This document shows positions 15,705-43,242 of a stretch of 48,617 nt of DNA, in pieces. This DNA is from a virus. The first letter of the stretch is position 1. The number at the start of each line of letters is the position of its first letter. The notes beneath the pieces were generated by a model. The model did not search any database, had not been told where the DNA came from, and worked only from the letters and a program-made list of their open reading frames with translations. The position numbers were made by a program, and so were the translations under genes. The stretch lies in IMG/VR virus record IMGVR_UViG_3300019458_000022; one strand, given 5' to 3'.

Positions 15705-16445
15705 ATGTATATCGACGGCCACCCTCGCGGGCCTCGACGGGATCGCGGGCATTCCCGACACGATCTGGAAGACCATCTCGGATTCTATGGAGGAGGCGCG
15801 GGAGGACTGGGCGATCTCTCGGAAGAGGCATACGGTCGGCCTCCTTATCCCGAGATGGGATACGTGGCCGCGGCGACCGACGCGAAGGGGACGCTCTTCA
15901 ACATCGAGGACTCCGACCGCGGCACGGAAGCGACCGTCGAGAAGATGGCGGAATTGGTCAAGAAGGGGTCGTTCGATCCCTTCGTGATCAAGAACGCCAT
16001 GCGGATCGTCCGCGCCGCTGGAGTTCCCCGGAAGGCTTACCTCAAGGAGATCGAGGCGCTCTTCAGGTACGCGCAGGGAACCCATCCGACGCTTCCCGGC
16101 CTCCGCTACTTCAAGGACACCTGGCACGCGGAGAAGCTCCAGAGCGCGCGGCGCACCGAGGAATTCGGGGGCTCTGATTGTGACGACCTCGTCATTCATC
16201 TCGGTGCCCATCTACTGAGCATAGGGCATGGGCCGATACGCCTGGTGGTGGTCGCCGCAGATCCTCAGCGTCCGGACGAATACTCCCATGTGTACATGTG
16301 GGTCGCTCACCCCGAAGGAAACGCGGTCGATCCAGAAGACGGCTCGCGCTGGATTCCGCTCGACCCGACCGTTGGAAAGCCGATGGGCTGGGAAGTCGAG
16401 AACCCGTTCCGGAAAGCGTACTTCCAGGTGAGCCGTGCCGACTAA
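15705..16445 (+). CDS. Transglutaminase-like (papain-fold) cysteine enzyme, putative maturation protease
   Basis: Catalytic triad motifs GSDCDDL, SHVY, WIPLDPT; begins MYIDG. Confidence 0.75.
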   Translation: MYIDGHPRGPRRDRGHSRHDLEDHLGFYGGGAGGLGDLSEEAYGRPPYPEMGYVAAATDAKGTLFNIEDSDRGTEATVEKMAELVKKGSFDPFVIKNAMRIVRAAGVPRKAYLKEIEALFRYAQGTHPTLPGLRYFKDTWHAEKLQSARRTEEFGGSDCDDLVIHLGAHLLSIGHGPIRLVVVAADPQRPDEYSHVYMWVAHPEGNAVDPEDGSRWIPLDPTVGKPMGWEVENPFRKAYFQVSRAD

Positions 16446-16974
16446 GGCCGCACTCGTCGAGATCGAGGAGGTTCCTTTTGGAATCCGAAAAACCCTGGAG
16501 CAGATGGAAAAGCTTTCAATCCGCGGCGCGCGAGATCCATTCGTCATCATGAACGCGATGAGGCTCGTGAACGCGCTCGGCATCCCCAGGAAGGCTTACC
16601 TCAAGGAGATCGAGGCGCTGCTCCAGTACGCGCAGGGAATCCATCCGGAGTTCGGGGGGCTGCGATACGCGCGCGACCCTCGCGAGGTCATGGAGTCGCC
16701 GCGGATGACCGAGGAGTACGGTCACGGCGACGCCTCGGATCTCGCCGTCTGGCTCGCGGCCCATCTCCTGGCGATCGGGCATGGGCCGGTACGGTTCGTC
16801 GCGATCTCCGCCAAGGATCGTCCGGACGATTTCGTTCACGTCTATCTGCACTACGGGAACCCGGAAGGAAAGCGATTCCGATGGATCGCGCTCGATCCGA
16901 CCGTCGAGGAGCCGATGGGCTGGGAATACCCGGACGCGGCGAAGAAGGTCTACTACGACGTGGGGAAACAGTGA
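16435..16974 (+). CDS. Transglutaminase-like paralogue lacking the catalytic Cys
   Basis: Aligns with the previous gene (DPFVI.NAMR, PRKAYLKEIEAL, HVY, WIALDPT) but has GDASDL in place of SDCDDL. Confidence 0.75.
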   Translation: MPTKAALVEIEEVPFGIRKTLEQMEKLSIRGARDPFVIMNAMRLVNALGIPRKAYLKEIEALLQYAQGIHPEFGGLRYARDPREVMESPRMTEEYGHGDASDLAVWLAAHLLAIGHGPVRFVAISAKDRPDDFVHVYLHYGNPEGKRFRWIALDPTVEEPMGWEYPDAAKKVYYDVGKQ

Positions 16975-17723: not shown

Positions 17724-17794
17724 AAAAGCCCCCTGCGGTGGTTCGGAGGCGGAGATTTCCGCCCGCACGAGCCATCGCAGGGGGTTTTTGTTTT
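17724..17794 (+). terminator. Intrinsic terminator-like structure
   Basis: AAAAGCCCCCTGCG...CGCAGGGGGTTTTTGTTTT with inner stem GGCGGA/TCCGCC. Confidence 0.6.
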
Positions 17795-17832
17795 CCAGGA
17801 AAAACGTTGAGTCAGATTGAAGGAGGATCGGC

Positions 17833-19788
17833 ATGAGTGCGACACTGGCCGCTCGTCGCAGGCGGCACGTCGGTGCGCTCGCCGGTATCGGAGGGACGCG
17901 GAGGCGTCGTCGGCGCCGTCGCGGGATCTCCGATGTGGCGGCGTGGTTCGGACACAAGCGGAAGCATTCCCGCGCGGCCAAGAAGGGCTGGCGCACGCGC
18001 CGCCGCCGCAAGAGCAGCCTGGGTCGGCTCACGAAGGCGGCCCGGAGGAAGGCGGCCAAGAAAGGCTGGCGCCGCCGGAAGCGGAAGGCCGCCGAAGGCG
18101 CGCTCGCCGGTGTCGGCGGGCGTCGTCGTCGGCGCCGTCGTTCCCGGAGCCGCCGTCGCCGTTCGCTCGGTCGGCTCACGAAGGCCGCCCGGAGGAAGGC
18201 GGCCAAGAAGGGCTGGCGCCGCCGCAAGCGCCGCGCCGCGGGCGCGCTCGCCGGTCTCGGCGGCCGTCGTCGCCGTCGTCGTTCGCGGAGCCGCCGTCGT
18301 CGTTCCCATCTCGGGGTCACGCGGCGCCGCCGTTCCCGTCGTCGTCGTTCGCACCTCAGCGGCACCCGCCGCCGCCGTTCCCATCGCCGTCGTCGGCACC
18401 TGAGCGGCACCCGCCGCCGGTCTCGCGGCCGTCGCCGGGGTCTCCGCGGCCTCGGCTACATGACCGAGACCTACGCGGCCGGTCGGTTCGGGCTGGACGG
18501 CCTGGGCCGCATCCTGCCCGGCGAGGTCATCGAGCGGTACAAGATGGGGCGCACCCGCAGGCGCAAGGGCCGGAAGGGCTCCCGGCGCAGCCGGAGCCGC
18601 CGGGGCGTCCGGGGCGTGTCCCTCAGGCCCATCGTCTACGACATGGGCGGAGCCAGGAGACGCCGTCTCGGCGCCTGGATGCCTGGAGAGGTCCGGACGA
18701 CGTTCGGACGGGGGTTCGGTCCCGAAGAGCAGTTCATGGGCCGCGTGCTGCCCGGGGAGGTCATCGAGCGGTACAAGATGGGACGGATGGGCCGCATCCT
18801 GCCCGGTGAAGTGATCGAGCGGTACAAGATGGGCATGCTGCCCGGAGAGGTCCGGACGACGTTCGGACGGGGGTTCGGTCCCGAAGAGCAGTTCATGGGC
18901 CGCGTCGTCGGCCGTGGCCGCGGTCGGGTGACCTACACCCGTCGTCGGCCCGTGCGCGGCGGCGTCACGAGGGTCACCCGGCGTCTCCCCTGGTTCGCGC
19001 GGGGCGCGATGGCGGGGATGTACGCCAACCCGAAGGAGACCTTCGGCGTCGGCCCGTTCAAGTACATCTTCTCGACGCACGGCCTGGTCGGGATCGGCGG
19101 CCTCGCCATGGGGCGTACGGTCTCGAACATCGTCAGCCACCTGCTGCACTTCTTCCTGACGTCGAAGGACGCCGAGGGCAAACCCAAGGCGCTGGTCGCG
19201 GCCCCGCTCATCAACCACGTCGGCGATCTGATCGGGGCGGTCGGCGGCTACGAACTGGGCCAGGTCATCGGCCGGAAGGCGTACGGGACGGATCTGGCGC
19301 GGATGGCGACTCTCGGCGCGATCGGCGGCCAGCTTTTCTCGTACCTTGCGAAGGGCACCATGGCCGTCCTCGACCTCATCGGCCTGGAGGTTCCGGGCGG
19401 CGCCAAGTACGGCGGCCTGGGACGCTACGGCGCGGAAGGCGAGGAACGGGCCATCGGACGCTACGGAGCGGAGGGCGAGGAGCGCGCGATCGGGCGCTAC
19501 GGCGCGGAAGGCGAAGAGCGTGCGATCGGCCGGTACGGCGGCGAGTCCGAAGAGCGCGCCATCGGGCGCCTCGGGCTGCCGGGCCAGGGCTCGCGTCCGG
19601 GCGGTTCCCGTGCCCTCCCTGCGGAAGAGCAGGAGGAGAAGGGGATCATCGACGAAGAGGGCCCCGAGGAGGTCGCCGCTTCCGAGATCATCCGCGATCC
19701 GGAGGCCGAGGAGCCCGAGGAGGAGTTCCTGGGCGCCCTGGCCGACGAGCCCGAGGAGGAGTTCCTGGGCTCGGGAGACAACTTCTAA
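17833..19788 (+). CDS. Protamine-like Arg-rich repeat protein; putative DNA-condensing core (poly)protein
   Basis: AGGAGG RBS; about 260 aa of poly-Arg blocks, internal repeats, hydrophobic segments, acidic C-terminus. Confidence 0.75.
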   Translation: MSATLAARRRRHVGALAGIGGTRRRRRRRRGISDVAAWFGHKRKHSRAAKKGWRTRRRRKSSLGRLTKAARRKAAKKGWRRRKRKAAEGALAGVGGRRRRRRRSRSRRRRSLGRLTKAARRKAAKKGWRRRKRRAAGALAGLGGRRRRRRSRSRRRRSHLGVTRRRRSRRRRSHLSGTRRRRSHRRRRHLSGTRRRSRGRRRGLRGLGYMTETYAAGRFGLDGLGRILPGEVIERYKMGRTRRRKGRKGSRRSRSRRGVRGVSLRPIVYDMGGARRRRLGAWMPGEVRTTFGRGFGPEEQFMGRVLPGEVIERYKMGRMGRILPGEVIERYKMGMLPGEVRTTFGRGFGPEEQFMGRVVGRGRGRVTYTRRRPVRGGVTRVTRRLPWFARGAMAGMYANPKETFGVGPFKYIFSTHGLVGIGGLAMGRTVSNIVSHLLHFFLTSKDAEGKPKALVAAPLINHVGDLIGAVGGYELGQVIGRKAYGTDLARMATLGAIGGQLFSYLAKGTMAVLDLIGLEVPGGAKYGGLGRYGAEGEERAIGRYGAEGEERAIGRYGAEGEERAIGRYGGESEERAIGRLGLPGQGSRPGGSRALPAEEQEEKGIIDEEGPEEVAASEIIRDPEAEEPEEEFLGALADEPEEEFLGSGDNF

Positions 19789-19956: not shown

Positions 19957-20565
19957 ATGCCGCGTCTGACAGGTAAGCGCGAGATCGTCACGGGCTGGAT
20001 CTACGACGCCGCGACGCTCGGTGTCTCCGGGCTCTCCGGCCGTGGATTCCAGATCCCCAACCCGGTGGATACCTGGGATGCGTTCCAGCAGCCCAAGGGC
20101 CAGGCGGGGAAGACCTTCACCCAGACGAACGTCGAGGCGGGCTCCGGGTTCCTCCCGGGCGTCAAGTCGTTCGTCATCAAGTCGGAGGTCTTCAAGGTCG
20201 AGGATTGCAGGCTCTCGGACGACGTCTGCAAGATCATCGACGGCGGCAACGCGACGCTCAAGATCTCGGAGAAGTCGTACCCCTCTCCGATGCCGATCTG
20301 GCTCTTCTCCGGCGGGACGGGCCTCTTCGACAACGTCCGCAGCGCCGCCGCCGCGGCCGGGGACATCCGGGCGACGGTCGGGCCGGGCAACATCGCCAAC
20401 GTGCTGAAGTTGCACCGGGCTCTGCCGGTTCCCATCAACACGCTGGAACCCTTCGTCTTCGAGTTCCGGTGGCAGCCCGCCATCACGATCGGGCCGCAGC
20501 CGACCGAGGACGGCATCCAGGTGTGGGTGGTGCTGTACGGCTTCCTGAAGCGTCAGGTGGCGTAA
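19957..20565 (+). CDS. Candidate major capsid protein (single jelly-roll-like)
   Basis: 202 aa beta-strand pattern (WIYD...QTNV..GSGFLP...FVI...VWVVLYG); very strong RBS GGAGGTGAT; followed by a GC hairpin; directly after the core-protein gene. The fold is inferred. Confidence 0.5.
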   Translation: MPRLTGKREIVTGWIYDAATLGVSGLSGRGFQIPNPVDTWDAFQQPKGQAGKTFTQTNVEAGSGFLPGVKSFVIKSEVFKVEDCRLSDDVCKIIDGGNATLKISEKSYPSPMPIWLFSGGTGLFDNVRSAAAAAGDIRATVGPGNIANVLKLHRALPVPINTLEPFVFEFRWQPAITIGPQPTEDGIQVWVVLYGFLKRQVA

Positions 20566-20605
20566 GCCGCCCGGCTGCGGAAGGAACCGCACTGGTCGAG
20601 TACAA

Positions 20606-20660
20606 GGGGGAGGGCGCGGCCTCCGCGCCCTCCCCCCGCTGTACCTTCCAGGTTTTTTTG
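20606..20660 (+). terminator. GC-rich hairpin after the capsid candidate
   Basis: GGGGAGGGCGCGG-cct-CCGCGCCCTCCCC, with a T-run about 15 nt downstream. Confidence 0.5.
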
Positions 20661-20721
20661 GCCCTCGGCCTTGTAGAGCCTGCCGAGCGGATGAAGGGGT
20701 GGCTCCCCGGAGGACTTTTTT

Positions 20722-21303
20722 GTGCCGAACGAAACGCGCGAAGAAGACCTGGACGTCAGGGCGCTTCTTCGGAAGATCAACAAGAACCAGAACGCGCTTC
20801 ACTCCCGGCTCACGTCGATCGAGCAGCGGGTTTACAAGTACACCGACGACGTCGGCGAGGTCTCGAAGCGCGGACAGGGGATCTTCGAAGACGTCTTCAA
20901 GGTGATCCTCACGGTCGAGTTCACCGAGGCGCTCCAGGTCCAGAGCGACCAGTTCATCACCGCCAGCGACTTCCATTTTGATTACCTGAAGGTCGCGGGC
21001 TTTCCCGAGCAGTTCAGGTCGCGGGTGAATATCCGGTTCAAGGACATCTCCAGCGACGTGGAACTCGTGGGGCGCCGCGATTTTATGCCGCTCGACACGT
21101 TCGCGGGCACGGGAGAACTTCCGTTCGCGGAAGTCGCGCCCCGGCGCTTCGTCGCCCGCGGCGGCATCCTCATGGACTTCCAGGACAACGGGACCATCGA
21201 CGGGGTGACGCCCTCGAACCCGGGCGACTTCCCGTACCGGATCACGATCACGATCCATGGTCTCAAGGTCTTCCTCCAGAGGGTCGAGCGGCAGGGACAG
21301 TAA
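20722..21303 (+). CDS. Putative structural protein (N-terminal helix plus beta-sandwich)
   Basis: 193 aa, GGAGG plus GTG start, alternating beta pattern. Confidence 0.6.
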   Translation: MPNETREEDLDVRALLRKINKNQNALHSRLTSIEQRVYKYTDDVGEVSKRGQGIFEDVFKVILTVEFTEALQVQSDQFITASDFHFDYLKVAGFPEQFRSRVNIRFKDISSDVELVGRRDFMPLDTFAGTGELPFAEVAPRRFVARGGILMDFQDNGTIDGVTPSNPGDFPYRITITIHGLKVFLQRVERQGQ

Positions 21304-21311
21304 GCCCTGCC

Positions 21312-21947
21312 ATGATCGTGAGACGACCGTTCCGCTTCGCGGCAAGCGAAGTGGAGAAGAACCAGAGGTCACACTACGTCCTGAACGACCTCCCCCTGGA
21401 GCACCAGGTCCGCGGAAACGACATCGTCAACACGGTGATCCGCCGGAAGGAGATCGGATTCCGGACTGTCGCCTATCCCGGCGGCGTCATGAAGTACGAG
21501 GAGGCGATCGTCGGCAAGATCCCGGACGAGCACCGGGTCCATCCGGAGGGCCTGGAATCCTACTACCTGCCCGAGATCGTCGCGCCGCCGGACTTCTCCC
21601 AGCCGCTCATCCTGTCGGACACGTTCACGATCCCAGCCTTGGCGTCGAACTTCGTCACGATCGACTTCACGGTGCCGATCGCGCGCGAGGCCGCGATCAA
21701 GACCGCTTTCTTCGAGGTCGCCGACGCCTCGATCGACACGATCAGCTTCAACATCGTCTACGGCGGCATGAAGAGCGAGTTCGCGGTCAATGTCGAGGTC
21801 TCGCCCCTCGAATCCTGGCAGGCGAACATGCGCCTGGACGAGCAGATGCGGGTCGCCGTGCTCGTCACGAACGCGCTCGCGGGCATCCGTTCGGTCCGGG
21901 TGGCGCTGAACGGCTGGATCTACCCGGTCCATAAGAGGGTGGTGTAG
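21312..21947 (+). CDS. Putative beta-rich structural protein
   Basis: 211 aa; C-terminal beta pattern ending VRVALNGWIY, similar to the end of the 19957 protein. Confidence 0.6.
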   Translation: MIVRRPFRFAASEVEKNQRSHYVLNDLPLEHQVRGNDIVNTVIRRKEIGFRTVAYPGGVMKYEEAIVGKIPDEHRVHPEGLESYYLPEIVAPPDFSQPLILSDTFTIPALASNFVTIDFTVPIAREAAIKTAFFEVADASIDTISFNIVYGGMKSEFAVNVEVSPLESWQANMRLDEQMRVAVLVTNALAGIRSVRVALNGWIYPVHKRVV

Positions 21948-21949
21948 CG

Positions 21950-22585
21950 ATGGTCGATACGCTCACCATCTTCTCGAAGCGCGTCAAGGTCCCGGCCAAG
22001 GGCGTCGTATCGAGCAATTTCTGGGTCTCGATCGGCTTCGGCTCGATCCGGGGGATCGCCAACGCCGACAAGGTCGGCCCCGAAAGCCTGGTCCGGATCA
22101 TCCAGGGAATCAATCCGGAGAAGCGGGACCGCCAGCGGGCCATCAAGCTCTTCGATCCGAACTGCGACATCAAGCTCATCGAGCCCGTGTGCTCGCAGCT
22201 TGTGCGCGTGGACTACGAGAACGACCTGGACGAAGAGGTCAACCTTTCGCTCGACGTCGCGCTCTCGAAGCGGCGCGTCGAGCGGGACGAGGTCAAGTAC
22301 CGGGACTTCTTCAACGAGACGCGCACCGTGCTCGCGGGATCGACGTTCGCGCAGAACGAGGTCAACATCCAGGAAGCCCTGGGACGGTCGGTGACGTCGC
22401 TCCACATCCAGCTTCCGACGTCCACGGACCTCGTCAACCTAAAGATCAACGACGAGGGCACGAACCTTTTCGAGGTCATCGGGGAACGTCGCTTCACGCC
22501 CGAGGCCGACCAGTTGGAAATCTGCCGGGTCTTCATCGAGAACCCGGGCGCGGGCAACCTCGACGTGAGAATCTTCGCGACCTGA
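21950..22585 (+). CDS. Putative beta-rich structural protein
   Basis: 211 aa, tight operon spacing. Confidence 0.6.
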   Translation: MVDTLTIFSKRVKVPAKGVVSSNFWVSIGFGSIRGIANADKVGPESLVRIIQGINPEKRDRQRAIKLFDPNCDIKLIEPVCSQLVRVDYENDLDEEVNLSLDVALSKRRVERDEVKYRDFFNETRTVLAGSTFAQNEVNIQEALGRSVTSLHIQLPTSTDLVNLKINDEGTNLFEVIGERRFTPEADQLEICRVFIENPGAGNLDVRIFAT

Positions 22586-22595
22586 TTTAGAGGGC

Positions 22596-23261
22596 ATGAA
22601 GATGCTGGGCATGCTGAGCGCGGCGCGGATCACGAGCCGTCTCCGCCCCTACGTGGCCGCGGTCAAGCCGCCGACCGTGAAGGGGAAGCGCTGGTTCGTC
22701 GAAGCCTTCTTTCCGAAGACGATCAACTATCGGCCGTTCTTCCACAAGGACTCGATCCGGCACGTCTTCCGGCGCCCGGCGATCGAGGGCGGGATCGACC
22801 ACCGGGTCATCATCGGGTGCCCGGTCGTCGATCCGGCGACCGGAAAGAAGACGCGGGTCGTCTACAAGGCCGACAAGCGGACGAAGGAGCGCTACCCGAC
22901 CTGCTCGGTGAGCCCGATCACGCTCAACATCTGGCATCCGGACACCAAGGCCGAGCGCGAAAAGGTGAAGCGGATCATCAAGGACTACGGCAAGGATCTC
23001 GCCAAAGTCCCGAACAAGATCGGGAAGGCGATCCTCTCCCGCCAGAGGAACCTGGTCCGGATCGAAAACCTGATCGAGCGGATGCGCGGCCGGAAGACCA
23101 CCCGGAAGCGGACCCGCAAGGTCGCCGGGCTGTCCGGCGCGCGCGGCGGACGCCGGGGAGGCATCGGGGTGGGGCTGACGATCGCGCTCGTCGGACTCGG
23201 CGCGCTCGTCACCTGGGGAATCATCGGAAGCTTCACGAGGAAAACGACGGTAGCCGCGTAG
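22596..23261 (+). CDS. Basic protein with C-terminal membrane anchor
   Basis: K/R-rich body; GIGVGLTIALVGLGALVTWGIIG followed by RK. Confidence 0.7.
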   Translation: MKMLGMLSAARITSRLRPYVAAVKPPTVKGKRWFVEAFFPKTINYRPFFHKDSIRHVFRRPAIEGGIDHRVIIGCPVVDPATGKKTRVVYKADKRTKERYPTCSVSPITLNIWHPDTKAEREKVKRIIKDYGKDLAKVPNKIGKAILSRQRNLVRIENLIERMRGRKTTRKRTRKVAGLSGARGGRRGGIGVGLTIALVGLGALVTWGIIGSFTRKTTVAA

Positions 23262-23306
23262 TCGGGATTCCGAGACCGGATGGACTGATTGGATGCGAGG
23301 CGTGGA

Positions 23307-24548
23307 ATGAGCAAGAAGCGCGGACATCGCGGCGGCGCCCGTCATCGCGGGACCGGTGCCAGGGAATCCGGCATCCCGCCCGGTCTCTGGGTGACGCTCT
23401 TCGGCGTGACCGGGATCACAGTGCTTGGGGTGGCTCTCGCCAACTCGAAGAAGAACAACGCGAAGGACAAGGGCACGTCCGGGCTCCGCGACCTTCCGAC
23501 GCACTACCCGTTCTACCCGCGCGTCATGCCGTCCTACGAAGTCCCGATGAAAGTCCACCGGGACGCGGAGATCATCCAGCACCAGGAAGTGAACCCGGCC
23601 GGGAAGGTCATCATCTCCGAGGAGATGCAGCCGGTCGAGAACGTCCAGTACCTCCCGCAATTCACGCCTCCGGCGAGCCGCCGTCTCCCGGACAATCCGT
23701 TCGAGTTCTCTGGAATCGAGGGTGAGGAGCCCGAAGAGGAGTTCATGGGCGCGGCCGAGGAGCCGGAAGAGCAGTTCCTCGGGACGACGCGACCCAAGCC
23801 CTACTATCCCACCGACTTCGAGGCCGTGAACGCCACTTTCGAGAAGGTGGACGGCCTGAAGCTGGAGGGGATCAACGTCGGCGAAGCGAAAGCCCCTGCG
23901 ACCGTCGAGGAGATGTTCGCGCAGAAGATCATGCAGACGACCATCGAAGCCGAGGAGGATACGAAGCGCGACCAGAAGCGCTTCGATGACGAACTCGGCA
24001 ACCGCGAGGCGACGGCCGACGACCTCGACATCGACGACACCGCTCCGGACGAGGATGAAAAGGACGATGAAGAGGCCGGGGACGTGATGGAGGAGGACAA
24101 GGCCGAAAAGGAAGAACCCGAAGGGAAGGACGAGGCCGAGGAGAAGGAGGACGAGTTCGAGGAGCTTGACGAGGACGACATCGAGAAGGCCCTCGACGAA
24201 GCCGAGAAGGCGCCTCCGGCTCCGTCCGCTCCGCCAAAGGCCATCGTCGAAATGCCCGGTCCTCCCATCAAGGAGGAAGTCATCACCGAGGTCCGTCCGG
24301 TCCTTCCTGGAAGGCCCCCGGGTGGGGCGCCCGCGGAAGTCAAGGTCGGCGGCAAGTGGATCGGCGCGAAACCCGGCCGCCCGCTGCCCGAACACGCAGT
24401 CGCCAAAGGCGTTCGGCGCAAGGTGACCCGGATCGCCGGAGTCGATGCCAGGAAGCTCGCGATGCTCGCCGAACTCGGCGAATACGACAAGGCCAAAGAA
24501 GAGGCGTTCGAGGCGCTCGAAAACGGGCTTATGAACGGCCTCTTCTAG
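23307..24548 (+). CDS. Membrane-anchored acidic low-complexity protein
   Basis: N-terminal TM; two PEE[EQ]F[ML]G motifs; D/E-rich tract; start after GAGG. Confidence 0.7.
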   Translation: MSKKRGHRGGARHRGTGARESGIPPGLWVTLFGVTGITVLGVALANSKKNNAKDKGTSGLRDLPTHYPFYPRVMPSYEVPMKVHRDAEIIQHQEVNPAGKVIISEEMQPVENVQYLPQFTPPASRRLPDNPFEFSGIEGEEPEEEFMGAAEEPEEQFLGTTRPKPYYPTDFEAVNATFEKVDGLKLEGINVGEAKAPATVEEMFAQKIMQTTIEAEEDTKRDQKRFDDELGNREATADDLDIDDTAPDEDEKDDEEAGDVMEEDKAEKEEPEGKDEAEEKEDEFEELDEDDIEKALDEAEKAPPAPSAPPKAIVEMPGPPIKEEVITEVRPVLPGRPPGGAPAEVKVGGKWIGAKPGRPLPEHAVAKGVRRKVTRIAGVDARKLAMLAELGEYDKAKEEAFEALENGLMNGLF

Positions 24549-26834: not shown

Positions 26835-27173
26835 ATGTACATGAACGGAAGCGGCATCGGCCAGTGGGCGGACATCATTTCCGCGGTCGTTCCGGCTCTC
26901 GCCAAGGTCGGGACGTCGGTCTACGGGGCGAAAGTTACGAAAGACATCATCAAGAAGCAGGAAAAATCGGCGATCCAGCAGGCCCAGCTTGCGCTCAAGG
27001 CCCAGCAGGCGGCTCTGGCGGCCCAAATGGCACAGGAAAAGCGGGCGGCCGACGCCGAGAAGAGCTTCTTCGAGAAGTACGGCCTCTACATCGGGATCGG
27101 CGTGGCCGCGGTCGGGATTCCGGTCGCGGTTCTTCTGGCGATGCCGAAGGCGAAGGAAAAGAAGTCGAAATGA
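26835..27173 (+). CDS. MY-start small membrane protein
   Basis: MYMNGSGIGQ; C-terminal KYG-TM-basic tail. Confidence 0.7.
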   Translation: MYMNGSGIGQWADIISAVVPALAKVGTSVYGAKVTKDIIKKQEKSAIQQAQLALKAQQAALAAQMAQEKRAADAEKSFFEKYGLYIGIGVAAVGIPVAVLLAMPKAKEKKSK

Positions 27174-28024
27174 GCCGGTACATCGGAGCCGAGGACAAGG
27201 TGCTGACCGAGGACGACGACGACGTCGAGAAGGTCGAAGGCGAGGTGCTGTTCGAGGCACAGACGCCCTACCAGAAGATCTGCCTCTTCGTCGAGCGGAA
27301 CGGCTCGGTCTCGCTCACCCTCGACAAGTACTGGCAGTTCTACGGGCCCGAGGAGCACATCTACCACGAATCGCTCATGACGGTCCCGATGCTCATCGCC
27401 AAGCGGATCAAGGACGTCGTCATCCTGGGAGGCGGCGACGGGCTCGCCGTCCGGGAGGCGCTCCGGTTCCAGGAACTCCGGAAAGTATGCCTCGTCGAAC
27501 TGGACCCCTCGATGATCCGGATGGCCCGGGAGCACCCCGTCATGCGGTCGCTCAACCGGGACGCTCTCCAGAACAAGAGGGCGGAAGTCTACGCGATGGA
27601 CGCGCAGCGTTTCCTCAAGGACAACCGGAAGTGTTTCGACGTCATCGTCTGCGACTTCCCGGACCCCACGAGCCCGGTGATCGCGCAGCTTTTCTCGAAA
27701 GCCTTCTACCGGGAGGTCGCCGGACACCTCGCTCCCGGAGGCGTGGTGTCCGTCCAGGGGTCGAGCCCGTCGAGCGAACTCGATTTCGTGACCACCTACG
27801 TCAATCTCGCGTCGGTGTTCCCCTATGTCCGGCCGTACGCGCCGGTCATGCCGACCATGGGAATGGCCGGGATGTTCGTCGCGTCGGATGCGCCGATCAA
27901 GATGCGCCGGGGTTTCCCTGAAGGGCTCAGGTTCCTGAACAAGAAGACCATGGACGACATGTTCGATCGCGGGTCGGCGATCGGGAAGGCGCTTTTGTCC
28001 AAGTACGACGCCCTTTTGGCTTAG
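27170..28024 (+). CDS. speE: Spermidine synthase / polyamine aminopropyltransferase
   Basis: QTPYQKI, EHIYHESL, VILGGGDG, VELDP, DAQRF, FDVIVCDFPDP, LFSKAFY, LAPGG. Confidence 0.9.
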   Translation: MSRYIGAEDKVLTEDDDDVEKVEGEVLFEAQTPYQKICLFVERNGSVSLTLDKYWQFYGPEEHIYHESLMTVPMLIAKRIKDVVILGGGDGLAVREALRFQELRKVCLVELDPSMIRMAREHPVMRSLNRDALQNKRAEVYAMDAQRFLKDNRKCFDVIVCDFPDPTSPVIAQLFSKAFYREVAGHLAPGGVVSVQGSSPSSELDFVTTYVNLASVFPYVRPYAPVMPTMGMAGMFVASDAPIKMRRGFPEGLRFLNKKTMDDMFDRGSAIGKALLSKYDALLA

Positions 28025-28033
28025 AGGTCTCTC

Positions 28034-28363
28034 GTGTACATCAGCGACGTCGAAAAGCGCGCCAAGGGACGGCTGCTCCAGCAGCGGGACGGAAAGCCCG
28101 CCAAGCGCATCCCGAGGTCCGCCGTGCGGAAGGCGCTGGAGAACGCGATCCTGGCGCTCGACCGCGTCATGAACGACCTCGACGTCGTCGTCGAGGACTT
28201 CTGGACCGACGAGGACGGGAAGCCGCTCACGAAGGGGCTTCCGGCCAAGAACCACTCGATCGACGCGGCCGACCAGCTTTATCTCGCGAAGAACAAGCTC
28301 TATCGGGCGATCCGGCTCCTGGAGAACGCGGGCCGGGGAAACGTCGCGGAGGAGGCGCACTAA
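28034..28363 (+). CDS. MY-start helical hypothetical protein
   Basis: GTG start after GAGG, (M)YISD. Confidence 0.65.
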   Translation: MYISDVEKRAKGRLLQQRDGKPAKRIPRSAVRKALENAILALDRVMNDLDVVVEDFWTDEDGKPLTKGLPAKNHSIDAADQLYLAKNKLYRAIRLLENAGRGNVAEEAH

Positions 28364-30256: not shown

Positions 30257-30655
30257 ATGGCAGGGTTCGCAACGACGTTGGTGGCCACGGTGACGGGACC
30301 GGGCCCGCTCACCTTCACGGCCATCAGTTCCGAGGGAGCGGTCATCGCGACCGGCCTCACGGAATTCGTCTTCCCCGACAACGGGAAGCGGTTCCAGGTC
30401 CAGGTCGTCGATGGGTCGAACAGCAGCGGCGCCTTCCAGTACCGTCTGATGTACAAGGGGAACGGCGGCACCGTGAAGCTGATCGACGTGGTCTCCGCGG
30501 CGGCGGGCGAGGTTCTGAAGAGCTTCGCCGTCGAGAGTCCGCTCCTCGAAGTGCTGGGCGACGGCACCCGGTCGATCTCCGCGGAAGCGATCATCGCGAT
30601 CGGCGCCCCCGCGGACGGCTGTCTCGTGGTGATCGTCGTCCAGCGCGAGACGTAG
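30257..30655 (+). CDS. Beta-rich structural protein, tandem paralogue 1
   Basis: MAGF...GLTEFVFP...GCLVVIVVQRET. Confidence 0.8.
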   Translation: MAGFATTLVATVTGPGPLTFTAISSEGAVIATGLTEFVFPDNGKRFQVQVVDGSNSSGAFQYRLMYKGNGGTVKLIDVVSAAAGEVLKSFAVESPLLEVLGDGTRSISAEAIIAIGAPADGCLVVIVVQRET

Positions 30656-30730
30656 CCGGGGGTTCCGAACCTGGAGAGTTAGACACGGGGCCTGGAGAAC
30701 GGCTCAAGGACTGCCGAAGGAAGGTGCGAC

Positions 30731-31123
30731 ATGGCCGGATTTGTACATACCCTCGTGGCGTCGGTCACCGACGTGGGTCCGATCACGTTCACGGCGATCG
30801 AGGACGAGGGGGCCACGATCACCCCGGGCCTGACGGAGTTCGTGTTCCCGGACACGGGGCGCGTCTCCCAGGTCCAGGTGGTCGATGCATCGGACTTCGG
30901 GCCGTTCAGCTTCCGCCTGAGCTACAAGGGCGACAGCGGCGTCGTGAAGCTCATGGACATCGTGTCCAAGACGGCGGGCGAGGTGTTCAAGAAGTTCAAC
31001 GTGAACAAACCGCTCTTGGAGGTCGAGGGCAACGGGGTCCGGGCGCTTCGTGCGGAAGCCCTGGCCGTAGGCGCTTTCGATCTCGGGTGTCTCGTCATCG
31101 TCGTCGTGGAACGGGAGACGTAG
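30731..31123 (+). CDS. Beta-rich structural protein, tandem paralogue 2
   Basis: Aligns end to end with the 30257 and 31201 proteins. Confidence 0.8.
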   Translation: MAGFVHTLVASVTDVGPITFTAIEDEGATITPGLTEFVFPDTGRVSQVQVVDASDFGPFSFRLSYKGDSGVVKLMDIVSKTAGEVFKKFNVNKPLLEVEGNGVRALRAEALAVGAFDLGCLVIVVVERET

Positions 31124-31200
31124 GCGGAGGTTCGCAACAGATGGGCTAGGCATGGAGCCTGGCCGGAAGTTTTACGCGGATTGTTGAAGGAGGATGCAGC

Positions 31201-31599
31201 ATGGCAGGGTTCGCGCACACTCTTGTGGCCTCGGTCACCGGCGTGGGTCCGCTCACGTTCACGGCGATCGAAGACGAGGGGGCCACGATCACCCCGGGTC
31301 TGACGGAGTTCGTGTTCCCGAACTCGGGTCGCGTCTCCCAGGTCCAGGTGGTCGATGCCTCGAACAGCGCCGGTGCCTTCTCCTACCGCCTGAAGTACAA
31401 GGGGGACAGCGGCACCGTGAAGCTCATCGACGTCGTGTCCGCGGCGGCGGGCGAGGTCTTGAAGAGCTTCGCCATCGAGAGCCCGCTCCTCGAAGTCAGG
31501 GGAAACGGCACCCGGGCGCTGCTGGCCGAAGCCATCGTCGCGGGCGGCGCGACGCCGGACGGCTGCCTCGTCGTCATCGTCGTCGAGCGGGAGACCTAG
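31201..31599 (+). CDS. Beta-rich structural protein, tandem paralogue 3
   Basis: Aligns end to end with the 30257 and 30731 proteins. Confidence 0.8.
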   Translation: MAGFAHTLVASVTGVGPLTFTAIEDEGATITPGLTEFVFPNSGRVSQVQVVDASNSAGAFSYRLKYKGDSGTVKLIDVVSAAAGEVLKSFAIESPLLEVRGNGTRALLAEAIVAGGATPDGCLVVIVVERET

Positions 31600-33804: not shown

Positions 33805-34566
33805 ATGGTGACGCTGCCTCATCCGGTTCCTGCGGACTACGTCCTCATCAAGCCGTCCACGTACGAGGACGTCCAGATCACCGACTACGTCAAGGACACG
33901 CAGGCCGGGTACCCGCGCACGTTCCTGGCCGTGGACAAGGGCAAGTACTCGGTCAAGCCGGACGGCAGCCGCGTCCCCGAACCGGACGAGCGCATCCAGA
34001 TGATGGTCGTCGAGAGCGAGAGACCCGAGGCGGACAAGCTCGGCTCCATCTGGTCGTGGAAGGTCGTCAACGAACTCACCAACAACCAGTTGGTCTACCG
34101 GGCTCCGGACCGGGCGCGCGCGCTCAAGGAAGCCCAGGAACACGCGGCGGCGGCCGAGAAGATCCCGATGGACTACAAGAGCCCGGCGAAGCCCGTCTGG
34201 CCGATCTTGCTCGGGGTCGGCGCCGCCGTGCTCGGGGTCGGAGGATTCCTCTATTGGCTGGCGACCCGCAAGAAGGAGCGGCCATCGCTCGGGGACTACC
34301 CCGAAACCGAGTTCATGATGGGTGATCTCCCGGAGGAGCAGTTCCTGGGCGCCCGGCGTCGGATGGGCAAGATGAGCCGTGCGGCCCAGAGGTTCGTCTC
34401 GACGAAGATCCGCGCCCTTCGGCACGAGGGCTATCCGGCCAAGCAGGCGGCCCGGATCGCCTACGAGTACGCGCGCCGCGCGGGCTACAAGGTTCCGGAA
34501 CCTCGCAAGGTCGCCGGGGTCGGGCGCATAGGGCCAAAGAAGAAGAAGAAGCGGATCTACTGCTAG
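33805..34566 (+). CDS. Membrane protein with basic C-terminal module
   Basis: Central TM; PEEQFLG; KQAARIAYEYARRAG basic helix. Confidence 0.7.
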   Translation: MVTLPHPVPADYVLIKPSTYEDVQITDYVKDTQAGYPRTFLAVDKGKYSVKPDGSRVPEPDERIQMMVVESERPEADKLGSIWSWKVVNELTNNQLVYRAPDRARALKEAQEHAAAAEKIPMDYKSPAKPVWPILLGVGAAVLGVGGFLYWLATRKKERPSLGDYPETEFMMGDLPEEQFLGARRRMGKMSRAAQRFVSTKIRALRHEGYPAKQAARIAYEYARRAGYKVPEPRKVAGVGRIGPKKKKKRIYC

Positions 34567-41313: not shown

Positions 41314-43242
41314 ATGACCGTCAGGAAGAGTGACTTCTTCACAACGTTTCCTTCCTTCACCGGACCTTTCGGCGCAACCGGAGTCCAGGGAGAAACGGGT
41401 CTTCAAGGAGAGACCGGAATCCAGGGCGAGACCGGAGCCCAAGGAGTTCAAGGAGAGACCGGGATCGGAGTCCAGGGCGCAACCGGAGTCCAAGGTCAGA
41501 CCGGCATTCAAGGGCTGACGGGCGCTCAAGGCATTCAAGGTGAAACCGGGCTCACGGGCGTGACCGGTGTTCAAGGTGAGACGGGCGTTCAGGGCCAGAC
41601 CGGGGTCCAGGGCATCACCGGTGTTCAAGGTGTTACCGGCGCCCAAGGCCAGACAGGGGTCCAGGGTCAGACCGGAGTTCAGGGCCAGACTGGAGTTCAG
41701 GGCGTCACAGGCGCTCAGGGCCAGACGGGAGTCCAAGGACAAACCGGAGTCCAGGGTCAAACGGGCGTTCAAGGTCAGACCGGAGTCCAGGGCCAGACTG
41801 GAGTTCAGGGCGTCACAGGCGCTCAGGGCCAGACGGGAGTCCAAGGCCAGACCGGAGTCCAAGGCCAAACCGGCGTTCAGGGACAAACCGGAGTCCAGGG
41901 TCAAACGGGAGTTCAAGGTCAGACCGGAGTCCAGGGCCAGACCGGAGTTCAAGGACAAACCGGAGTCCAAGGCCAGACCGGAGTCCAAGGCCAAACCGGC
42001 GTTCAGGGACAAACCGGAGTCCAGGGTCAAACGGGCGTTCAAGGTCAGACCGGAGTCCAGGGCCAGACTGGAGTTCAGGGCGTCACAGGCGCTCAGGGCC
42101 AGACGGGAGTCCAAGGCCAAACCGGCGTTCAGGGGCAGACGGGAGTTCAAGGACAAACCGGAGTCCAGGGTCAAACGGGACTTCAAGGTCAGACCGGAGT
42201 CCAGGGCCAGACCGGAGTTCAAGGACAAACCGGAGTCCAAGGCCAGACCGGAGTCCAAGGCCAAACCGGCGTTCAGGGACAAACCGGAGTCCAGGGACAA
42301 ACGGGCGTCCAAGGCCAAACCGGAGTCCAGGGTCAGACCGGAGTTCAAGGACAAACCGGAGTCCAAGGCCAAACCGGCGTTCAGGGGCAGACGGGAGTTC
42401 AGGGACAAACGGGCGTCCAAGGCCAAACCGGAGTCCAGGGCCAGACGGGAGTTCAAGGACAAACCGGCGTTCAGGGACAAACGGGCGTCCAAGGCCAAAC
42501 CGGAGTCCAGGGCCAGACGGGAGTTCAGGGACAAACGGGCGTCCAAGGCCAAACCGGCGTTCGGGGACAAACCGGCGTCCAGGGCCAGACTGGGGTTCAA
42601 GGTCAAACGGGCGTTCGGGGCCAGACCGGCGTCCAGGGCCAGACGGGAGTTCAAGGACAAACCGGCGTCCAAGGACAGACAGGAGTCCAAGGTCAAACGG
42701 GCGTTCAAGGCCAGACTGGACTTCAGGGCCCGACCGGACCATCAAGTGTTCGATTCCTGTTCTATGCCGATCAACTTGATAATCCTGATACTTCCGATTG
42801 GGCGGTCAACTCACTTGCTCCGGCGAATACGGAAACCGGTCTCACGGCTCTCACGGTCAGATCGTTCGACGACACGGCGGAAGAGGGCGTCGGTTTCATC
42901 TTCAGCATTCCGACCGGGCTTTCAAACTACAAGATAACCTTCAAGTCGCGCGCACGGACTGCGCCCGCGGCGGCGAGGAGAGTCGGTCTCCGACTTTACC
43001 ATCGGGAAATCCCGGACAATGCGGTAGTTTCCGGATGGACGAACATGCAGCTTACGGATATCGACATCCCGGCCAACATCTTCTTCCAGTACGACGGCCA
43101 AACGCTGGCGTTCACGGACTTCAATCCGGACCTCGTGGCAGGGCGACTCTATCAGTTTGAGCTTACGCGCATCGACCCATCGACAGGTACCGATCTTGAA
43201 GGTGACTGGGATCTTCTCGAACTCGGCATCGAGTTGACCTAA
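41314..43242 (+). CDS. Collagen-like fibre/spike protein with C-terminal globular domain
   Basis: About 150 Gly-X-Y triplets dominated by GVQ-GQT, then a beta-rich domain of about 165 aa. Confidence 0.9.
41371..42745 (+). repeat. Degenerate 18-bp tandem repeat encoding GVQGQT
   Basis: Units such as ggagtccagggccagacc with synonymous variation. Confidence 0.9.

Follow-up and report, generated by a model that had tools for sequence, protein, structure and literature searches.

A repeat-built polycationic protein of an uncultured bacterial virus-like element and its possible role in DNA condensation

By general understanding, the DNA in particles of bacterial viruses is essentially naked and accompanied by ions, polyamines and a few internal proteins, and it is the eukaryotic viruses that characteristically have protamine- or histone-like cores. 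One gene in the IMG/VR virus record IMGVR_UViG_3300019458_000022, whose whole stretch of 48,617 nt is called the window here, raises the question whether a bacterial virus might neutralise its genome with a protein of the latter type. Translation of the open reading frame (ORF) at positions 17833-19788 on the plus strand gave a product of 651 residues, P0001, which an earlier note on this DNA had described as a protamine-like core polyprotein punctuated by putative cleavage motifs. The reading that we find most likely is that P0001 is a DNA-neutralising packaging protein of a kind so far known only from animal viruses.

Architecture and charge of P0001

The protamine-like composition proposed for P0001 was borne out, in a translated protein that belongs to a prokaryotic virus-like late module. 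All of the sequence elements that had been listed were found in the 651-residue translation. Its punctuating strings are GALAGIG, GALAGVG, GALAGLG, SLG (twice), HLG, HLSG (twice), LRGLG and LDGLG, and its later elements are GR[IV]LPGEVIERYKMG (three copies), PGEVRTTFGRGFGPEEQFMGRV (two copies), GRYGxExEERAI (four copies) and an acidic tail. The gene and its parts are as follows.

17833-19788, plus strand: coding sequence (CDS) of the 651-residue polycationic protein P0001, from translation, GC content at third codon positions (GC3), a synonymous-change test and homologues
17833-18459, plus strand: residues 1-209, poly-Arg/Ser tracts, KAARRKAAKKGWRRRK units and GALAG[IVL]GG patches, net charge +95
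18460-19026, plus strand: residues 210-398, a mosaic of short motifs (GYMxxxYAAGRFGxDG, LPGEVIERYKMG three times, PGEVRTTFGRGFGPEEQFMG twice) amid basic tracts, net charge +30
19027-19392, plus strand: residues 399-520, a Gly-rich hydrophobic domain with three long predicted helices, the best conserved part
19420-19569, plus strand: the 12-residue unit GRYGxExEERAI, four in tandem (36-nt period)
19573-19785, plus strand: acidic tail, net charge -19, with two PEEEFLG motifs and ending in ...GDNF

Residues 1-209 hold 97 Arg and Lys against 2 Asp and Glu. Over residues 1-398, Arg and Lys account for 36% of the sequence (142 residues) and the net charge is +125; the hydrophobic domain has a charge of about 0 and the last 71 residues one of -19, which leaves the whole of P0001 at +106. 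An AlphaFold2 (AF2) model of the C-terminal half, built on an alignment of eight sequences, showed three helices with a predicted local distance difference test (pLDDT) of ∼66-72 and no order in the rest (mean pLDDT 50). Extreme basic charge in disordered repeats, a trait of viral polycationic DNA-condensing proteins, is thus present in P0001. At the DNA level the gene contains direct repeats of 67 nt (copies 99% identical), 74 nt (89%) and 31 nt (97%), and 4.2 copies of a 36-nt unit. These repeats, both tandem and dispersed, show the modules of P0001 to be products of recent internal duplication. P0001 had no match in Pfam, PHROG, NCBIfam or, by phmmer, among PDB sequences, and its neighbours, queried along with it against Pfam, PHROGs and NCBIfam, were likewise blank.

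The gene and its reading frame

Two elements stand upstream of the start codon.

17821-17826, plus strand: a perfect Shine-Dalgarno sequence, AGGAGG, 6 nt 5' of the ATG at 17833 (sequence inspection)
17724-17795, plus strand: a very stable hairpin followed by a U-run, resembling an intrinsic terminator, between an 80-residue gene and the Arg-rich gene (folding)

The public gene call for the window contig begins at the internal Met210 (ATG 18460) and gives 442 instead of 651 amino acids. No comparable ribosome site lies upstream of this codon, and homologues with the same starting MSATLAA keep the upstream Arg-rich part at the protein level; Met210 was therefore rejected as the true start.

We also considered whether the ORF could be an artefact of high GC content or the shadow of an antisense gene. 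In a codon alignment with a 74%-identical homologue (L002), which was guided by the P0001 frame itself and therefore carries a mild bias, the share of differing codons that were synonymous in that frame was 0.45, 0.28 and 0.53 for three consecutive segments. Among the other frames, an antisense one sharing the third codon position came highest, at 0.36, 0.30 and 0.38. The P0001 frame was thus highest in two of the three segments, including the poly-Arg segment, where its 0.45 compares with 0.05-0.36 across the other five frames; for the middle segment, it and the antisense frame were on a par (0.28 vs 0.30). The antisense ORF of 672 amino acids was not kept open at the locus of a distant homologue. 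Given these results and the AGGAGG site, both the artefact and the antisense shadow were rejected. Arg codons are shifted to CGT in P0001 (37 of 136, vs 14 of 181 in neighbouring genes). The gene and its reading frame are real and genuinely coding, and the frame is translated, as the earlier note had presumed, on the evidence of the AGGAGG site, the excess of synonymous changes through the poly-Arg part and the conserved homologues.

The hairpin at 17724-17795 has a folding energy (dG) of -53.4 kcal/mol and a z-score of -9.2 relative to shuffled sequences. As only ∼37 nt are left between the hairpin with its U-run and the ribosome site, expression of the Arg-rich gene would proceed by read-through or from an unrecognised promoter.

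A protein family known from metagenomes

A word-based search and an exhaustive profile search, covering 1.8 billion representatives, returned only metagenomic relatives of P0001, with source samples from caves and sediments. Full-length homologues are present on at least five other metagenomic contigs: P0003 (571 amino acids), P0020 (576, on L003), P0004 (459, 50% identity), P0008 (417) and P0031 (475, on L006). P0005, P0006, P0007 and P0009 are truncated gene calls or contig-end fragments, P0009 being a truncated P0031.

The members share a common plan of four parts. The first is a polybasic N-terminal half, ∼177 to 398 residues long in complete members and built from duplicating short modules, of which the KKGWR and GALAG units are retained in P0003, P0020 and P0004. 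Arg plus Lys is constant at 36-37% of the basic half in the three closest members and the two residues interchange freely (60 Arg and 28 Lys in P0004). Because the basic half varies in length and swaps Arg for Lys while the architecture is conserved, it is charge, and not the exact sequence, on which selection acts. The second part is the Gly-rich hydrophobic domain, with the pattern NPxETFGVGxFK...GGLxLGRT...INHxxDLxGxVGGYExG...GGQLF; the third consists of GRYGxExEERAIG-type repeats, with 2-4 copies in all relatives. The fourth, the acidic tail, bears a pair of PEEEF[LM]G-type motifs, which read PEDQF[LS]G and PEREFKE in distant members. The tail terminates in [D/S/T]PF in seven of seven aligned relatives and in DNF in the window protein.

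When the basic half alone was used as query, no relatives beyond the P0001 family were found. Neither the C-terminal domain nor the 202-residue protein encoded next to P0001 had a match by tblastn in 50,697 GenBank phage records, and scans of IMG/VR contigs and GTDB species genomes gave no relatives of P0001 or of the 202-residue protein, and hence no connection to a prophage or a host. Since GenBank phages, the scanned IMG/VR contigs and GTDB were all without match, the family is known from metagenome assemblies only. As judged by these searches, P0001 defines a new protein family without annotated or cultured homologue.

Public calls cut the family at an internal Met, not only in the window (442 for 651 amino acids) but also in L003 (257 for 576) and in the L006/L007 lineage (345 for 475), and the polybasic half is consequently missing from protein databases. 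Systematic truncation by automatic gene calling explains why the family has so far escaped notice.

Genomic context and codon usage

The window contains a dark, co-oriented, late-looking module opposite a replication arm (UvrD helicase, Cas4-like nuclease, SNF2 helicase and replication initiator). On the 5' side of P0001 it encodes an 803-residue coiled-coil protein, a pair of paralogues, a small transmembrane (TM) protein and the 80-residue gene. The following features of the module bear on P0001.

15705-16445, plus strand: transglutaminase-fold enzyme with a Cys-His-Asp triad (GGSDCDD / SHVY / LDPT)
16435-16974, plus strand: its paralogue, with the catalytic Cys changed to Ala and His and Asp retained
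19957-22585, plus strand: four consecutive proteins of 193-211 amino acids, GC3 0.87-0.93, the highest in the window
27170-28024, plus strand: spermidine synthase, present also in the distant L006 module

The Arg-rich gene lies directly 5' of a conserved protein of ∼200 amino acids in the window, in L001, L003, L006, L007 and L008 and on the contig of P0030. The synteny search proposed by the earlier note was thus positive: wherever the sequence of a relative extends far enough, an Arg/Lys-rich homologue immediately precedes the gene of this protein. The order of the enzyme pair, the Arg-rich gene and the 200-residue genes is also preserved in L001 and L002. Even in the most distant relatives, in which the P0001 relatives are ∼29% identical, the first 200-residue protein is 49% identical.

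GC3 is 0.88-0.94 in the C-terminal, non-repetitive half of P0001, compared with 0.87-0.93 in the four genes that follow and 0.74-0.79 in the enzyme genes. In its codon bias P0001 resembles the putative major structural genes, and we propose from its codon usage and position that it is an abundantly expressed late protein. The conserved spermidine synthase in the module would fit the theme of charge neutralisation. The late module also holds collagen-like fibres, LamG, a glycosyltransferase and a match to a PHROG 'virion structural protein'. Small proteins are numerous after the four 200-residue genes, and small membrane proteins abound in the module: 19 of its 44 ORFs have a segment with a Kyte-Doolittle mean of >=1.8, mostly with basic tails.

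DNA condensation by the polybasic half

Our preferred reading, to which we give slightly less than an even chance, is that P0001 neutralises and compacts the DNA of a large (∼150-175 kb) uncultured bacterial virus-like element. What we infer here comprises DNA binding, presence in the particle, the roles of the helical domain and of the tail, and any processing. The disordered, repeat-built polybasic half would bind DNA non-specifically, as do protamines, adenovirus VII/Mu, P6.9 and P64. The three-helix Gly-rich domain might oligomerise or might dock P0001 onto the inner surface or the membrane of the particle. The acidic tail could mask the basic half before contact with DNA or dock onto a partner, and the virus-encoded spermidine synthase would supply small polycations for the same charge neutralisation. 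That a conserved, highly expressed protein of charge +106 adjoins the putative major structural genes, in a module that also encodes a spermidine synthase, suggests that a lineage of large (150-175 kb) uncultured bacterial viruses compacts its genome in a different way.

The same composition would bind any nucleic acid, and incorporation into the virion is a prediction. P0001 could accordingly act as a non-structural effector, compacting the host nucleoid, shutting it off or binding RNA, and have no part in packaging the virus's own DNA. We consider this highly unlikely. The gene is co-oriented and syntenic with the late, structural-looking module in all relatives, its codon bias is like that of the most highly expressed late genes, and it stands apart from the replication and helicase genes, which occupy the opposite strand.

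Several points weigh against DNA condensation as the function of P0001. DNA binding and presence in the particle are predictions from the sequence, and to our knowledge the bacterial viruses described so far package essentially protein-free DNA. By simple arithmetic, full neutralisation of ∼350,000 phosphates would take ∼3,300 copies of P0001, at about twice the mass of the DNA; neutralisation would therefore be only partial, or would be brought about by released basic fragments. No recognisable gene for a capsid protein, portal, terminase or packaging ATPase turned up within the window, and a Walker-A scan of the late module for a packaging ATPase found none. The earlier note had assumed capsid homologues downstream of P0001, and the proteins encoded there are at most candidates for this identity: the AF2 model of the 202-residue protein reached a pLDDT of only 35, and its comparison by hhalign with PRD1 P3 and P31 was negative (probability <1%). 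The ESM Atlas linked this protein weakly to PRD1 P3/P2 clusters (0.76-0.78); the clusters close to it lack annotation and are for the most part labelled as tailed-phage contigs.

A further point concerns the hydrophobic domain, which is not a classical TM anchor. The precursor had been described as membrane-tethered, and this part of the proposal was not supported, as no 19-residue stretch of P0001 has a Kyte-Doolittle mean above 1.43, which is under TM level. The corresponding values are 1.38 in P0004 and 1.70 in P0008, vs 2.0-2.4 for true TM segments of neighbouring proteins. The helices of the P0001 domain bear conserved polar residues, and we read it, from these features, as a probable oligomerisation or peripheral-binding domain. 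Directly 3' of the four 200-residue genes, positions 22596-23261 encode a second strongly basic protein (221 amino acids, net charge +36, GC3 0.92) with a C-terminal TM anchor, and this protein would suit the part of a membrane-anchored, DNA-facing component better than P0001.

Possible cleavage of the basic half

We then asked whether P0001 is cut. In the polyprotein reading, the enzyme encoded at 15705, perhaps together with its inactive paralogue, would cut at sites made up of a small residue, a hydrophobic residue and Gly, and would free protamine-like peptides in the way adenain acts on pVII/pX. This reading is compatible with condensation of DNA by P0001 and would add a processing step to it. 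We regard it as unlikely.

The adenain-type pattern on which the idea was based stood for P0001 itself and failed as a feature of the family. The type 2 pattern [MLI]xGxG occurs five times in P0001, vs 1.0 expected, and these five sites derive from two duplicated units. It occurs twice in P0003, which is not above shuffled sequences, three times in P0004, and is absent from the distant P0008 and from P0009, the truncated P0031. The type 1 pattern, (M/L/I)xGG-x, was absent from all members tested. Looser punctuation by a hydrophobic residue and Gly had been said to mark nearly every module boundary. P0001 holds 18 such dipeptides vs 9.5 expected, an about two-fold excess that was reached by 3 of 2000 composition-preserving shuffles; the copies are not independent events, because they are products of internal duplications. 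With a small residue in front ([G/S/D/A]-hydrophobic-Gly), the pattern is about three-fold enriched in the basic half of five of six family members, although it can just as well mark linkers or short hydrophobic patches. Module and indel boundaries coincide with sites of this kind. Across the whole late module, G-hydrophobic-G was found 53 times vs 30 expected; since Gly-zipper TM helices largely explain this excess, it does not speak for shared cleavage sites. GALAGIG itself also occurs within a true TM helix, in the protein encoded at 16881, and may therefore be a mere small hydrophobic patch.

As to the enzyme, the motifs GGSDCDD, SHVY and LDPT are invariant in three orthologues from three genomes. 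A conserved (A/S/G)G(L/I)G in the variable extension at the N-terminus of the enzyme could serve for autoprocessing. The enzyme had no direct Pfam match at E <= 0.1 and none in NCBIfam, and a profile of the enzyme pair gave nothing meaningful against PDB sequences. In the ESM Atlas it fell among viral Transglut_core clusters (features 0.96; structure template modelling (TM) score 0.83-0.85) that carry PF01841, one of which has Peptidase_C93 in 20% of its members. The earlier note was right that this neighbouring cysteine enzyme is not of the adenain type: it is transglutaminase-like with a conserved Cys-His-Asp triad, and no adenain-family (C5) protease was recognised within the window. Enzymes of the transglutaminase fold also comprise cross-linkers, amidases and deamidases, which counts against assigning a protease function. 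Cleavage of P0001 is thus possible, and the support for it is the sequence pattern only.

A fuller scheme can be drawn in which a large-genome bacterial virus has an adenovirus-like core: P0001 would be cut at Gly-hydrophobic-Gly by a transglutaminase-fold protease and its pseudo-enzyme, and the peptides, together with virus-made spermidine, would condense the DNA in a membrane-lined particle. This is distinctly improbable; if true, it would mean that prokaryotic viruses independently invented a core maturation known only in eukaryotic viruses.

A short acidic motif shared with other module proteins

The motifs of the P0001 tail recur elsewhere in the module. Translated in all six frames, the window contains the pattern [ED][EQ]F[LM]G nine times, and eight of these copies are in coding frames, vs 0.1 expected overall. 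Fuller PE-type motifs are found in pairs on four otherwise unrelated module proteins, namely P0001 and the following three.

23289-24548, plus strand: membrane protein with a PEEEFMG and PEEQFLG pair
33805-34566, plus strand: membrane protein with PETEFMMG and PEEQFLG just past the TM segment
39639-40214, plus strand: protein with PDAEFMG and PEEQFLG close to the N-terminus

PEE[EQ]F[LM]G may be a signal for docking, virion targeting, processing or cross-linking. If it serves for docking, P0001 could be a scaffold, cement or tape-like assembly protein, with ERYKMG, GRYGxExEERAIG and PEEEF[LM]G offering multivalent docking to capsid or membrane proteins and with basic tracts that mainly recruit DNA or acidic surfaces. 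The shared pairs and their occurrence in coding frames are in line with this, as is the position of the gene directly 5' of the putative major structural genes. The motifs also persist among relatives while their copy number varies, and the RY[KQ][MV]G core is found in the distant P0008 and P0031 as LRYQVxG. However, a charge of +125 far exceeds what docking needs, no partner was identified, and the PEEEFMG pair of the protein encoded at 23289 is not retained in its L001 orthologue, where DEVxGV-type acidic repeats replace it. From this loss we take the motif to be lineage-specific outside the P0001 family. A scaffolding function is rather improbable. Acidic repeats (DEVDGVG / GVDEVEGVDETDGVDEVG) were also seen in place of PEEEF[LM]G pairs at L001 14623-16062 and L006 1000-2424, and the short acidic motifs on module proteins seem to be exchanged from lineage to lineage.

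Alternatively, the enzyme might join the Gln of PE[EQM]QF[MF]G to lysines such as those in KAARRKAAKKGW and so tie core proteins to membrane proteins. Within the P0001 family, the internal copies always carry Gln (seven of seven in P0001, P0003, P0020 and P0004), PEEQFLG comes second in the pair on each of the three other proteins, and a conserved transglutaminase-fold enzyme is encoded nearby. The tail copies carry Glu instead of Gln, and the small Transglut_core proteins of bacteria are generally taken to be hydrolases for the most part; P0001 as a cross-linking substrate is accordingly very improbable, and we retain condensation of DNA as the preferred reading.

Comparison with known systems

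Ascovirus P64, a 64-kDa virion protein with a pI of 12.2 and basic repeats, condenses a genome of 100-200 kb (PMC6163548). As an unusually large cationic protein made of tandem basic repeats it is a functional precedent for P0001. There is no detectable homology between the two, the exhaustive profile search having given metagenomic relatives only. The repeats of P64 are C-terminal with a 2-Cys adaptor, and P64 lacks the Gly-rich helical domain and the acidic motif tail.

Adenovirus pVII and pX (Mu) are likewise Arg-rich DNA-condensing proteins of a double-stranded DNA virus that encodes a cysteine enzyme, adenain, and the five P0001 strings fit (M/L/I)xGx-G. P0001 differs from them in having no sequence relationship, in its length (651 amino acids vs 198 and 79) and in its prokaryotic host; the window enzyme has the transglutaminase fold and not that of adenain, and the cleavage consensus is not conserved in P0001 homologues. 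With protamines and baculovirus P6.9, P0001 shares Arg/Ser(Thr)-rich tracts such as RRRRRRSRSRRRRS, a pattern that is regulated by phosphorylation in those proteins, which are, in contrast, smaller than 15 kDa and without further domains. We regard P64, adenovirus VII/Mu and P6.9 as functional analogues only and not as relatives. By function, P0001 would be a new variant among viral polycationic core proteins.

Internal head proteins of phages (T4 IPI-III and phiKZ-type inner-body proteins) are packaged with DNA and trimmed by a head maturation protease. They differ from P0001 in being only mildly basic and in being cut by a serine protease at other motifs, and P0001 has no PHROG match. Acidic tails ending in Phe are also known from E. 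coli SSB (...DDDIPF) and T7 gp2.5, where they attach, in cis or in trans, to the basic surfaces that bind DNA. The acidic tail ending in [D/S/T]-P-F-COOH in the seven aligned relatives recalls these tails; unlike them, P0001 is without an OB fold and the window protein ends in DNF.

Genome size and other features of the module

In the 341-kb contig Ga0214473_10000007 of a relative (L001, L004, L005), the locus is present twice, 151.7 kb apart. Given this spacing and a 151.8-kb contig in another assembly, the true genome of the relative would be ∼152 kb, and the contig is a concatemer with more than two copies of it. A further contig, L010 (ENA contig k141_618563, 139,916 bp), begins inside the right end of the window and runs into large multi-glycosyltransferase genes, an overlap that would fit a circular or circularly permuted genome.

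Within 15705-41279, 17 of the 44 ORFs start with Met-Tyr followed by a hydrophobic or small residue (MYI, MYV, MYL, MYM or MYA), and an eighteenth, at 28034, has a GTG start and reads V-Y-I. The Met-Tyr-starting ORFs mostly encode small TM proteins with basic C-terminal tails. The collagen-repeat gene at 41314-43242 has a GC3 of 0.58, far below the 0.74-0.93 of the rest of the module. Three tandem paralogues of ∼131 amino acids at 30257-31599, which start with MAGF, end in VV[QE]RET and have a GC3 of 0.88-0.91, may be another abundant structural component.

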